From the NCBI GenBank assembly GCA_024137785.1, contig JAHRHZ010000145.1:5632752-5696751 (forward strand): DNA of 64,000 nucleotides, given 5' to 3'. The stretch's first letter is position 1; the number at the start of each line of letters is the position of its first letter. Below are positions 11,114 through 43,746 of the stretch, in pieces. The notes beneath the pieces were generated by a model, which saw only the letters and a program-made list of their open reading frames with translations, was not told where the DNA came from and made no database searches. The translations under genes were made by a program, and so were the position numbers. This DNA is from Ginglymostoma cirratum. Taxonomy: Eukaryota.

Positions 11114-11204
11114 GTTTTCTGAAGAACGGTCCCGACCCAAAATGTCAACTTTGTTGCTCCTCTGATGCTGCCTGACCTGCTGTGCTCCTCTAGCTCCACA
11201 CCGT
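11114..11204 (+). mobile_element. Penelope-derived short insert with 12-bp TSD, inside a minus-strand CR1 remnant
   Basis: catctcatgaag at 11102-11113 and 11205-11216; degenerate core ctgaagaacggtcccgacccaaaatgtc. Confidence 0.85.
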
Positions 11205-16948: not shown

Positions 16949-18491
16949 GTACAGCCTATGGCTCCAGGTTATCCTGATTATGTGCCATGTAAATACATAC
17001 CATGTTATTATAATTAATCTCTCATTCGCATTTGATTTAATGTTGTTGATGAAGCAGCGGCTATATACTTGGTGCCACTGGCATGGAATTGACTTCCGCC
17101 AAAGCATAATAAAGGTTGACTCATTTGAAAATCTTGAATAAATTTGACTCAATCATCAGGGAATAGAGCAGTTTGCCCTTCGGACATGATAAAAGGACAG
17201 TTATAATATGGGGACTTCGATTGAGAAAGCTAATGTTCTATAACAATTCCATGTTTTCTTAGAACTGTGTTTTCTCCAATTCATAATGATTTCTGTAAGT
17301 AGATCTGATAACTTGCAAGAGTTATGAAACTCTGAGGATGATCAATGATCATTTCTTTGGAAGTATACATACAAGGTTTTACACGTATTTTGGTGAATAG
17401 TAAAACAGATTTTTTTCAAATAGCTGTACTACTTCACGTTAAAGAGGGAGCTGAGTGCAAAAGACTTGACAAAATGATGTCGGATGTAAACCTTCCTGAC
17501 ATGAAAAAGTCCTTAATGGGTTGAATTACCTTGAAGTGAAATTACTTTATGATTTTAAAAAAAGTAAGCTTCAGATTTCTTTACACATTTGTCAAACAAA
17601 GTTCTTAATTAGTCTTTGTGAAAAGGCAAGTTTGTTTTGTTTTGCATTCGTATCAGTACAGGTTCCCAGCTTGGAAAAGTTCATGATCTGTCTTTAACTG
17701 TTCAACCTGGTCAAATTGAGAGATGAGGCAAAAACTTGATGCGTTCAAAATTTGTAATGCAAAGCTATCTTAAACACTTCAAATATAGTCATGTAAATTC
17801 AGAGCTCTACAAAAATATACACCAATGGAATTTCCTTTTTTCAGTTGCTAAAAATTAACTCCGATCATAGACTCTTCGGATAATTCCATTTCACTTGCAC
17901 CCACCTTTAGAACCAATTCCTCTTCGGCAATTTAAAATTCATTTGATTAAACACTAAAACATCTCTTTGATTCTCTTAAGCAATGGTCACCTGAGCTTTG
18001 TTTTAAGCTATAAAAGCTAAATTCACTTTTGTGAAAATCTCTGTTTGTGCTTGCACAGGCATGTTAGTAGGGTGTGCTGTGTTTCTGTGAGTTGCTTGGG
18101 TCACTTAGACCCTGGTCTGTGAACTACTTGTAACAGCAATAACATAAACGCACAAACTTATTCAGTTTAGTGTCTGAGGAACAATTTAATTGACAGGGGA
18201 GGGGGGAAAAACCCAATAAATTGGTTGATTCAGTGTCCAGTTACCAGATTAGCATTTGAAATGTTTATTTTGATTAGAGAAATATCTCTATTTGCGATAA
18301 TCAATTTGAACAGTCAATCAACGTAATTGAGAAACATTCAGAGCAATAGTTTGTAACTGGTATGGTTACAGCTACTGGAGTTACTAGAAAATTGTAAAAT
18401 CGTCCCTAAATTGACTGCAAAGTGGTAAGACCAACTGGTACACTGACCTTGTATTTTTGTTTTTCCTATTCCACCCTCTTCCAAAATCCAG

Positions 18492-18652
18492 GTCCTGAGT
18501 AAAGCGAAGAAGCCCATGGTGGTGGTGGGCAGTTCAATTCTTCAGCGGAGTGACAGTGCAGCAATACATGCTGCTGTCAGCACCATTGCACAGAATGCCC
18601 GAGCAGGCAGTGAAGTTGGAGATGACTGGAAAGTTTTAAACGTCCTTCAGAG
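18492..18652 (+). CDS. NDUFS1: NDUFS1 exon 14
   Basis: cag|GTC...AG|gttgga; 161 nt; [54 protein letters not shown]. Confidence 0.96.
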
Positions 18653-19164
18653 GTTGGAAATGTGATCGATGAAGCAGTGAAAGCATTTTGTAACTTGGAT
18701 GTGGGCCTTGATGTTTTGGTGGAGTACTCCCTAAACTAAACCTCACAGGTTCCAGTTTCAGCACCACCTACTGCATATCTCTTCCCAGTTTTGAATTTAG
18801 TCAGATTACGGCACAGAACCTCACCCCTATCCACATTGTACACTGAAACAGTGTGAATTTTTGTAGCGCCTGTGACAGCCTCAGGAGATCCCAAAGCTCT
18901 CAGCAGCAAATTAAATTTTCTTCCTGCATGCCCGGAAATGTAATGGAGCAGGTTCACTTGAGGCATTCAAGAGGCCATGGATGATTTGGTTAGAAATAGT
19001 GTGCAAGGGTATGGTGAAAGGAAACTGGAGATTGGCACTAGATAATGATGCTCATTTGAAGAGCTAGTGCAGGCACGTTGAACCAAATAGTCTCCCATGA
19101 TGTAACAAGCTTGGGGCTGGATGAACACAGCAGGTCAAGCAGCATCATAGGAGCAGGAAAACTT

Positions 19165-19192
19165 GACGTTTCGGGCCTAAACCCTTCATCAG
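19165..19192 (-). ncRNA. Minimal type-I hammerhead ribozyme motif (Penelope-type)
   Basis: Minus strand reads CUGAUGA-A-GGG[UUUAGG]CCC-GAAA-C-GUC. Confidence 0.7.
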
Positions 19193-19214
19193 AAAATGAA
19201 GAAGGGTTTAGGCC

Positions 19215-19614
19215 NNNNNNNNNNNNNNNNNNNNNNNNNNNNNNNNNNNNNNNNNNNNNNNNNNNNNNNNNNNNNNNNNNNNNNNNNNNNNNNNNNNNNN
19301 NNNNNNNNNNNNNNNNNNNNNNNNNNNNNNNNNNNNNNNNNNNNNNNNNNNNNNNNNNNNNNNNNNNNNNNNNNNNNNNNNNNNNNNNNNNNNNNNNNNN
19401 NNNNNNNNNNNNNNNNNNNNNNNNNNNNNNNNNNNNNNNNNNNNNNNNNNNNNNNNNNNNNNNNNNNNNNNNNNNNNNNNNNNNNNNNNNNNNNNNNNNN
19501 NNNNNNNNNNNNNNNNNNNNNNNNNNNNNNNNNNNNNNNNNNNNNNNNNNNNNNNNNNNNNNNNNNNNNNNNNNNNNNNNNNNNNNNNNNNNNNNNNNNN
19601 NNNNNNNNNNNNNN
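19215..19614. other. Assembly gap (400 N)
   Basis: Run of n. Confidence 1.
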
Positions 19615-19649
19615 TATTTATTTCAGAACCCTCTTCCCCTCCCCCATTT

Positions 19650-19677
19650 CTGAAGAAGGGTTTAGGCCCGAAACGTC
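19650..19677 (+). ncRNA. Minimal type-I hammerhead ribozyme motif (Penelope-type)
   Basis: CUGAAGA-A-GGG[UUUAGG]CCC-GAAA-C-GUC; flanks AUUU/AAGU can form stem I; palindromic ACGU in place of stem III. Confidence 0.7.
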
Positions 19678-22067
19678 AAGTTTTCCTGCTCCTATGATGC
19701 TGCTTGACCTGCTGTGTTCATCCAGCCCCAAGCTTGTTATCTCGGATTCTCCAGCATCTGCAGTACCTTTTATCTCAGTCTCCCATGATGTAATAGCTCT
19801 TTGATTTTTTTTTTTCCCAAGTCTAGTCCCTGTTGTAGTGCAGGAAATGCAGCAGCCACTTGGCACACAAAAAGCTCCCACAAACAATAATGTGATAATG
19901 AGCAGATAATCTGCGTCAGGAATGTTGAGAATGAAAATATTAACAGGACACGAGGGTGAGTTCTCCTGTTCTTTCAAACTGTGCCTTGGGATCTTTTAAA
20001 CTGACTTTAGTGAGCGGACAGGACCTTGCTTTAACTTTACATTTGAAAAATGACACTTTCAATATGATGGTATTGCCTCAGCACTGGATTCGCAGCTTAC
20101 ATTTGATGCTCATGTTTCTGGAGTGGGGCTGTCTATTTCTCAGATGAGAGTGCCACACACAAAGTCTCAAATGTAATACAATATTGAGTCAGTGATTTAT
20201 GTTTTAGCACTATTTCAGTCATCTATTGATCTTAAAAGATTTTATGCTTGATCTTGGGAACTGCTGAGTTCCATAATACATCCCCACAAGCTACAGATCT
20301 CCAATGGCACTTTTGATGTCACGCAGTGTACAGTTTCAAGCAAAAATTGTTAAAATTTGGGACTCATGACAGTGGCAAGTGCATATAATGCTTGTGGAGG
20401 TATGAAGTATACGTGTGATTGTTCAACACCATAACGATTAGTGTGTGCAAATATCCCTTGCATCTCATAAACAGACTATATCACCACTGAAAGTATTCCA
20501 TTTTCTGAAATGAGACAGAATGATCTTCAGACAAAAGGAAACCAGTTTTTTGTTTGACTTTGGATATTCACAGATCATTCCAGCTATCTTTGGTGCTTTA
20601 TAGACTTTAATGCCTTGACAGCCCCTCCACACGTTGCACTTCACAACCAATGAAACCGCTTATGTGAATGCAGATTTATTCATTCAAATAAAGTTGGCAG
20701 GCTTTAATATCAGCTGACTACCAAGAAGGGATAAATTTAGAATACAGCTTAATATCTGAAGGAAGGCAGCTCCCATTCTCAACTGAAAATGTCAATTTTT
20801 TCCACAGATGCAGTCAAACCTGCTGAATTTCTCCAGCATTTTCTGTGTCTGTTTAAGGTTTCAACATCCATAGTGTTTTGCTTTTATCCTAGCAGTGAAG
20901 CACTCCCACAATACTGCACTGAACTGTCAACTTAAACAATGTGCGTGAGGCCACTCGACCCTCCAACTAACAAAGCTATGAGAATATAATCAAAAAAAAT
21001 AATGCCAATAATTTAGCTGTGTTCTCAAATAAACTCCATAGAATTTTCCAGCATAGAAATGGGCCATTCAGCCCAACTGGTGTGTGCTAGAAATCATCCT
21101 CCATACAAGACTCCTCCCATCTTACTTCACTTGTTACAAAACATTGTATTTCTTTCTTTCTCATGTCCTTATCTAGCTTTGTCCTTAAAAGCAGCAATGC
21201 TGTTCAGCTCAAATATTCCATGCTGTCATGAGTCCCAAATTTTAACAATTTTTTTTTTTTTTTTTTTTGTAGTCACGTTTGGATTTGGCATTGGTGTCAT
21301 CCTCCCAGCCCTTTAGTTGAATCGTTCTCATTCACTCAAGCAATTTTTAAGAATGATATTAGAGAAGAAGTACTTTGGATGTGAGGAGAGTCAAATTAAG
21401 TTAGGATGGTTCTCCTTTGCACAGTGAATGTTAATAGGATGTTTTTACAGAGATGATTAAAATTTTGAAGAGATTTGAGGTAAGGAGAAACTGTTTTTAC
21501 TGTCGGGACACATTTCATCTAGCAAGAAAAAACTGGGTGCTGGAAGTCAGAAACTAAAACAACTTGCTGGGAAAACTTAGCTGATTTGGCAGCACCTGTG
21601 GAGAGAAAGTAGAGTTAACCTTTTGAGCCCAGTGAACCTTATTCAGAATGTTGTTTTTGTTGTGTTTATTGCACAGATTTCATTTAATTGGCAAAAGAAC
21701 AAAAGGGTACATGAGATTTTCTTCCCATCAATGAATTAAGATTCAGAATTCATTGCCAAAGAAGGCTAATGAAAACAGGTTTAACAATAATTTTGGAATA
21801 GGAATTCCATATGTACTCAAAAGAATTTGTAGGAATGCAGCTGAATGAGTGAGGGGGTAATTTGATAATTCTTTCAAAAGGTCAGCACAATGAACTGCAT
21901 GGCCTTCTCCTGAAGGGTATGTTTGTATGAAATTAGAGATTTAAACTCAAAAACCTTCTTTTACTGAGGCAGCATGACAAGTTATGTTCTGATTTCTGGC
22001 CTGTGTTGTAATCAGTTTGTAGTTGTTTATTTGATGTGAAGTAACAAAGACACATGTGTTCATGCAG

Positions 22068-30056: not shown

Positions 30057-30207
30057 AGAAAACAAGGTGTCAAGCTTTTCTGAAGAAGTGTCCAGACCCG
30101 AAACGTCAGTTTTCCTGCTCCTCTGATGCTGCTTGACCTGCTGCGTTGAGCCAGCTCTACACCTTATTGTCTCAGATTCTCCAGCATCGGCAGTTCCTAC
30201 TATCTCT
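30057..30207 (+). mobile_element. Penelope-derived insert with 14-bp TSD in a CR1 3' fragment; hammerhead core at 30080-30107
   Basis: ataaaaataaggtg at 30043-30056 and 30208-30221; core CTGAAGA-A-GTGTCCAGACCC-GAAA-CGTC. Confidence 0.87.
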
Positions 30208-32820: not shown

Positions 32821-33143
32821 TTCATCAGAATCCGGAGGGAGGAGGGAAACTTCTTCAGGGTAGGCATCTTTGGAAGAGGCTTCGCAGTGGGGTTAAAATT
32901 GTATCAGAGATAATAGGAACTGCAGATGCTGGAGAATCTGAGATAACAAGGTGTGGAGCTGGATGAACACGGCAGGCCAAGCAGCATCAGAGGAGCAGGA
33001 AGGCTTGACGTTTCAGAATGATAAAGGGTCTAGGGCCGAAACGTCAAGCTTTCCTGCTCCTACGGTGCTGCTTGGCCTGCCGTGTTCATCCAGCTCTACA
33101 CATTGTTATCTCGGATTCTCCAGCATCTGCAGTTCCTATTATC
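32821..33143. mobile_element. Penelope-like insertion with inverted arms and a 16-bp TSD (1 mismatch)
   Basis: ccttaa(a/g)aatacgccc at 32805-32820 and 33144-33159; arms ~32909-33014 and ~33037-33143 are reverse complements; the left side carries about 90 nt of extra internal sequence. Confidence 0.87.
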
Positions 33144-43621: not shown

Positions 43622-43746
43622 GAGATAAAAGGTACTGCAGATGCTGGAGAATCCGAGATAACAAGCATGGGGCTGGATGAACACAGCAGGTCAAGCAGCA
43701 TCATAGGAGCAGGAAAACTTGACGTTTCGGGCCTAAACCCTTCATC
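43622..43746 (-). mobile_element. Young Penelope pLTR fragment, truncated within the hammerhead core
   Basis: One mismatch over about 88 nt against 19103-19190; lacks the initial CU of CUGAUGA. Confidence 0.87.

Follow-up and report, generated by a model that had tools for sequence, protein, structure and literature searches.

A recent Penelope-like element insertion with a minimal hammerhead motif in an NDUFS1 intron of Ginglymostoma cirratum

The window, the stretch of 64,000 nucleotides analysed here, holds in an intron of NDUFS1 a recent, 5′-truncated insertion of a very abundant Penelope-like element (PLE), likely of the Neptune type, whose hammerhead is carried along as a passenger and likely leaves the NDUFS1 pre-mRNA uncut, a reading given a probability of about 85%. 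The layout of the insertion, its target-site duplication, the empty site in a relative, the open reading frame (ORF) of the family, its copy number and the splicing across the intron were directly observed. The insertion is a real feature, and its class, layout and motif are already published.

Host gene and layout of the insertion

The host gene had been named NDUFS1 by the sequence-only reading, and this was confirmed by the exon upstream of the insertion (18492..18652, + strand), corresponding to residues 465-518 of the mammalian complex I 75 kDa subunit, and by ten ordered + strand matches to the NuoG profile, found at one locus only in the genome. The NDUFS1 exons were mapped in part, and the number 14 given to the exon and intron agrees with the human exon numbering. 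The host intron (18653..22067, + strand) runs from GT to AG, and its spliced joint was present in reads and contigs. The insertion comprises about 674 nt flanked by a target-site duplication (TSD) of 14-17 nt, whose left copy (19089..19105, +) consists of 14 nt plus 3 nt common to the arm end and whose right copy (19777..19793, +) is its direct repeat. This sequence occurs as a single copy at the empty site of a relative (organism B), in which 18400-19105 and 19813-19901 lie on one contig, 11 letters apart. The relative is about 5% divergent in this intron, with 36 differences over the upstream intron piece, which justifies the earlier description of the insertion as young. Contigs that contain the insertion junctions came from three samples of the same species in a single study (X1, X2 and X4) and mostly reach fewer than 31 letters into the element; the contigs of X5 and X6 end short of the junctions, and no empty-site joint was among those listed for the same-species runs.

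The visible element ends in two arms placed head-to-head. The left one is an inverted piece of the pLTR without tail (19103..19195, −), extending from the family's inner 3′ end site to the 5′ edge of the hammerhead, and the right one belongs to the visible 3′ end of the element (19616..19776, +), which includes the end of a pyrimidine-rich 3′ region, the pLTR with the hammerhead, and the tail. The arms (19103-19195, −, and 19647-19739, +) are identical at 92 of 93 nt, the sole mismatch being position N7 of the hammerhead. The 37-nt tail (19740..19776, +) is confined to the direct arm and lies between both family 3′ end sites, the inner of which terminates the left arm and the outer the right arm. 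The inversion junction (19174..19214) is a palindrome with 18-nt arms and a 5-nt spacer, whose right half is a third, partial core in direct orientation, starting at 19197 and bearing an A in place of C3. Past this junction, the interior between the arms reads N.

Inverted 5′ copies and one-sided tails of 30-40 nt (PMC8557442), as well as TSDs and palindromes at the inverted junction (PMC3846280), are described for PLE insertions. According to the available text of these papers, the tailless inverted arm, the 37-nt tail, the TSD and the junction palindrome are shared with units of EN+ PLEs such as Pen2a_Av of Adineta and Penelope of D. virilis; unlike those units, the insertion in NDUFS1 shows a short, ORF-less visible stub with an N interior. 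A non-LTR retrozyme, composed of head-to-tail hammerhead units, was considered and rejected, given that the visible arms are head-to-head and that no tandem array was found at the insertion, whose interior reads N. Retrozymes reach up to 120,000 copies in the axolotl (PMC7229834) and are reported in one chondrichthyan (bioRxiv 10.64898/2026.07.22.740005).

The same intron also contains a perfect inverted repeat of 31 nt (20342-20372 and 21223-21253, 850 nt apart), across whose left copy the contig of the relative is gapped. Elsewhere in the window, the segment 37400-39000 is GC-rich and CpG-island-like, and probably holds the first exon of the following gene together with its promoter.

The element family and its hammerhead

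A search with the right arm retrieved 1,433 candidates, and the 40 that were scored were about 99% identical. Two family copies (L024 and L009) carry an ORF with reverse transcriptase (RT)-like motifs recognized by eye, a C-x4-C-x2-C linker and a GIY-YIG domain, the latter with a PF01541 match (E=2e-4, 21.8 bits) just under the Pfam cut-off of 22.6. A CX2-5CxxC linker between RT and C-terminal GIY-YIG is given as a mark of Neptune and Nematis PLEs (PMC8557442, in part), and the family is likely a Neptune-type EN+ PLE. Its zinc-finger-like Neptune/Nematis linker distinguishes it from the PAc element of Anolis, a member of the Poseidon clade in which, in the text available, the ORF starts inside the ribozyme (PMC11167929).

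The exact 28-nt core has 33,304 matches in the 4.36 Gb genome versus none for the reversed pattern. With loop II free, the matches rise to 72,071, and with both helices free to 126,244, versus 69 for the control; all these counts are floors, because about one third of the sampled DNA reads N. The number of exact matches means that the core is no product of chance and, by the same token, that it is nothing special to this locus, so the interest previously attached to a core in NDUFS1 did not survive the count of more than 33,000 identical cores. Both the exact and the relaxed figures are far above the about 4,000 minimal hammerhead ribozymes (min-HHRs) of the coelacanth and 9,000 of Xenopus in PMC4209133, as far as its available text goes. 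No shark terms occur in the searchable supplement of that paper, one file lying outside the search, and no study of shark PLE hammerheads was found in the literature, of which the supplements of 10.64898/2026.07.22.740005 may name the family. Within the 64-kb window there are nine core-like sites. Other family pieces lie on both strands at 17-216, 2137-2261, 11116-11198, 30077-30206, 32907-33143 and 43622-43746, with head-to-head pairs at 2-216 and 32907-33143, and the piece at 30080 has intact core boxes and a mismatch in stem II.

Both cores reported from the letters alone were read directly in the sequence. The one at 19650-19677 (+) is CTGAAGA-A-GGGTTTAGGCCC-GAAA-C-GTC, and that at 19165-19192 (−) is the same with CTGATGA, so that they differ only at N7 of CUGANGA. 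The former lies in a minimal type-I hammerhead (19646..19681, +) composed of stem I (19646-49/19678-81), the core at 19650-56, the extra A at 19657, stem II (19658-61/19666-69), GAAA and the ACGU palindrome, with a predicted cut after 19677. Its CUGANGA, GAAA and UH boxes are intact and all 12 core nucleotides are kept; stem I has only four weak pairs (AUUU/AAGU), and the palindromic 15.2-16.2 positions (ACGU) bear no loop III. The extra A before stem II and the ACGU palindrome acting as stem III are thus present as described; stem II is also present, but instead of the 3 bp drawn before it is better represented by 4 bp (GGGU/GCCC) closed by a UUAG loop. The core with N7=U (19165..19192, −) is opposite to NDUFS1 and, if transcribed, would be folded back into the junction hairpin.

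An extra nucleotide, a G10.1-C11.1 pair and palindromic 15.2-16.2 positions are regular features of metazoan PLE min-HHRs (Cervera and de la Pena 2014, PMC4209133), for which reason the extra A and the ACGU palindrome are not new. According to the available text of that paper, the likeness extends to the core boxes, the base between 9 and 10.1, the G10.1-C11.1 pair, the missing loop III and the short helix I, as well as to the location in the pLTR, the opposite-strand pairs a few hundred bases apart (100-700 bp in the published cases) and the predominance of solo truncated copies. The Schistosoma min-HHR, with no activity as a monomer and low activity as a dimer, has a helix II of 7-8 bp, unlike the 4 bp found here (PMC4209133). 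In the family copies, the hammerhead is located in the pLTR, with the ORF upstream and the tail downstream. The proposal of a minimal type-I hammerhead with an extra nucleotide in a Penelope pLTR was therefore upheld by the family ORF, the layout, the tail and the published features of the motif.

The extra A occurs in all 66 anchored family copies, and the first pair of stem II is G-C or G-U in 48 of 52 alignment rows. In these rows the hammerhead structure was paired in 86.8% of cells, a value reached by 4 of 500 shuffles, with slid controls at 8-52%; the rows, 52 distinct ones of 80, had been pre-selected on the core boxes, so the core was fixed, and the 28 left out were mostly young-family rows differing only in the junction-derived flank, plus a few degenerate ones. 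Variation within the family is concentrated at N7, loop II and CpG sites. A sister family (L067:894-935, L075:7231-7272, L118:1675-1716) has N7=G, a stem II of 5 bp and a GUU cut site, and carries a G-C pair in stem I versus U-G in the family of the NDUFS1 insertion, a swap present in 11 rows and counted as one event. Many copies of the sister family also seem to begin just before the core.

Alternatively, the motif would only resemble a hammerhead and would owe its conservation to serving, at the start of the element, as a DNA promoter or a priming signal. This is compatible with a covariation score no higher than that of shuffles in the 52 rows (60/500) and with a downstream flank that is also partly conserved between families. 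Similarly, the excess conservation of the core over its flanks that had been anticipated was not significant among the sampled copies, neither in 66 copies (rare differences p=0.30, per-column p=0.54) nor against the 3′ flank in 55 copies with 13 core-list loci removed (p=0.42 and 1.0, respectively), in tests with little power among recently copied elements. A pooled test on the 66 copies (p=4e-5) was rejected because inherited subfamily variants were counted many times and 13 loci came from core-containing lists. All 12 core bases are retained in 48 of 55 copies when the anchors lie outside the core. In addition, the copy ends do not mark the cut site, and PMC4209133, in its available text, leaves room for other functions. 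However, the differences between the families (N7, loop II, H17, the added stem II pair and the exchange of U-G for G-C in stem I) fall at the positions that are free in a hammerhead, and homologous motifs cleave in vitro (PMC4209133, PMC11167929, both in part). This look-alike reading was judged unlikely; within the element itself, the motif probably works as a ribozyme.

Folding and splicing of the NDUFS1 pre-mRNA

Although cores exist on both strands, as first noted, the second is part of the inverted arm, and only that at 19650 is in the sense strand of the pre-mRNA, the left arm being its antisense. Folding predicts that, within the NDUFS1 transcript, the sense core is bound by the inverted arm in a 93-bp duplex of −186 kcal/mol, or −145 with prior formation of the junction hairpin. 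In this prediction N7 is the only core base that does not pair with the left arm, the probability of stem II is about 1e-8, and forcing the ribozyme fold would cost 39 kcal/mol, compared with 9 kcal/mol for the right arm alone. The dimer helix (ACGU) is predicted to be worth only about −3 kcal/mol. The duplex is provisional, as the N interior was kept unpaired and equilibrium folding ignores co-transcriptional kinetics and proteins. In other family copies the direct repeat continues past the junction, and an interior continuing it at the NDUFS1 insertion could let the left arm pair locally, freeing the sense core. If the inverted arm paired with the N interior in this way, the core would be left as a weak monomer, with a C3-less partial core as its visible neighbour; monomers of this kind are reported in PMC4209133 and PMC11167929 to need a dimer partner or the element's protein for activity.

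The intron is spliced in all six same-species runs that cover the joint. The GT..AG joint (18652/22068) was read in X22 (6 reads, 5 starts) and X1, and the letters of the next exon follow the donor in X2, X4, X5 and X6; X23 contributed only 14 reads, and X9 is DNA of the relative. The depth of intron contigs was similar on both sides of the insertion in four of four runs, a weak measure, and the reads showed no place with many molecule ends, in a library poorly suited to show them. Normal splicing would still allow a minority of the transcripts, or the intron after its excision, to be cleaved. In X22, a polyA library, family reads over 19070-19873 were about a thousand-fold deeper than the NDUFS1 exons, in both mate orientations. 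A long pyrimidine tract ending in TTTCAG, 20 nt before the ribozyme (19616-19645, also in family copies), resembles a 3′ splice site in sense orientation, and no spliced joint to it was among those listed.

The sequence-only reading had envisaged a possibly competent self-cleaving motif in the pre-mRNA. The intron is transcribed and the motif does lie in its sense strand; a likely role as a cutter was not supported, given the predicted duplex, the observed splicing and the inactivity of published monomers. Cutting of some nascent NDUFS1 transcripts by the sense core, with help from a trans partner or an element protein, would trim expression or process the intron. The core is intact and in sense orientation, the abundant family RNA of X22 means that trans partners for the ACGU helix exist, and cleavage of the anole PLE was helped by protein (PMC11167929, in part). 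However, the 93-bp duplex and the slight dimer helix, the splicing and even intron depth just described, and the tolerance of tens of thousands of such cores in the genome all weigh against it, and such cutting was rated quite improbable. The insertion would otherwise matter, if at all, as a long intronic dsRNA hairpin, a substrate for editing or small RNAs, rather than as a ribozyme. This effect of the near-perfect 93-bp inverted repeat was held to be the least probable of the readings, considering that such partners are common (a head-to-head partner lies within 1.4 kb of 45 of the 121 sampled copies) and that no effect on splicing was seen; locus-specific editing is unreadable at the arms, because reads of other copies swamp them.

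A canonical type-I hammerhead, or a domesticated intronic ribozyme, was likewise considered and rejected: an Rfam scan of 17000-22000 (E≤10) gave nine weak matches and no hammerhead, the fold is unfavoured, and the orthologous site in the relative is empty. The type-I topology and the sense position in an intron are shared with amniote intronic hammerheads (RECK and others; PMC6155905); those are canonical and conserved across species in the available text, whereas the one in NDUFS1 is minimal, belongs to a multicopy family and is lacking in a close relative.

Ends of family copies and role of the hammerhead

The ends of 121 distinct copies, chosen regardless of core from 60 grid stretches and the first listed matches, were compared. 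Their 3′ ends fall at 19733-19750 (inner site, 63 copies), at 19768-19790 (outer site, 51) and elsewhere (7). Both sites (19734-19743 and 19768-19776) close with the word TTATCTC, and AGT mostly follows the 30 best matches to the NDUFS1 copy, which may reflect target preference or query selection. The 5′ ends, with 18 copies censored by N, are few around the cut site (19676-19683, 4 of 105 at risk), increase at 19651-19658 (17 of 92) and 19643-19650 (25 of 74), and drop to 3 of 46 in the next 20 nt beyond 19643. Among the 42 clustered ends, 19 abut inverted family sequence, and both inner junctions of the NDUFS1 insertion are within this cluster. The same pattern was observed genome-wide from one downstream anchor, with 65,575 copies reaching 19678, 58,669 reaching 19665, 43,348 reaching 19648 and 24,933 reaching 19641. 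About 10% of copies are thus lost across the cut site versus 42% across seven bases at the 5′ edge of the motif, in rough counts obtained with probe lengths of 4-9 nt, whose losses include mutation and N.

These ends suggest that uncleaved element RNA gets copied. We infer that reverse transcription was initiated at two fixed positions separated by the 37 nt of the tail, that uncleaved element RNA was copied through the ribozyme, and that a fold-back at the 5′ edge of the ribozyme would have generated the inverted arm. In the anole PLE, two RT start sites bound the tail, the ribozyme cleaved only with protein and, in the available text, no RNA-seq ends were found at the cut site (PMC11167929). 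The family resembles this Anolis Poseidon PAc element (Frangieh et al. 2024) in having two 3′ end sites that bound a tail downstream of the hammerhead, in the evidence for an uncleaved RNA template and in showing no read ends at the cut site.

The simplest reading of the 5′-end cluster would be that the element RNA begins there, the alternative being a preferred fold-back site for self-priming (PMC3846280, in part). RT pausing at the hairpin was rated less likely as its source, because the enzyme meets the 3′ side of the hairpin first, where ends are few, and a splice acceptor was rejected, as there is no AG at the cluster. The sequence CCATTTC, replaced by TCAGTT in the sister family, overlaps the 5′ strand of stem I, and we take both to resemble the initiator consensus. 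Penelope of D. virilis has an internal promoter with an initiator (PMC2377424, in part). It is possible, if doubtful, that the RNA starts at the ribozyme, the hammerhead being its first 36 nt; cleavage would then remove a capped leader of 32 nt, and its role would be that of an off switch or translation switch instead of end formation. In this reading, tens of thousands of genomic copies would testify to an uncleaved RNA template.

For NDUFS1, the insertion probably has no consequence. Were the motif to cut pre-mRNA, its identical cores, numbering tens of thousands, would burden long genes across the genome, which would be notable. On the role of PLE hammerheads, the family, being young and very large, provides a simple genomic test, with copy ends that stay away from the cut site and gather at the 5′ border of the motif, and a compact construct for biochemistry. 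If the RNA does start at the ribozyme, the family would be a natural in vivo readout of PLE hammerhead action.
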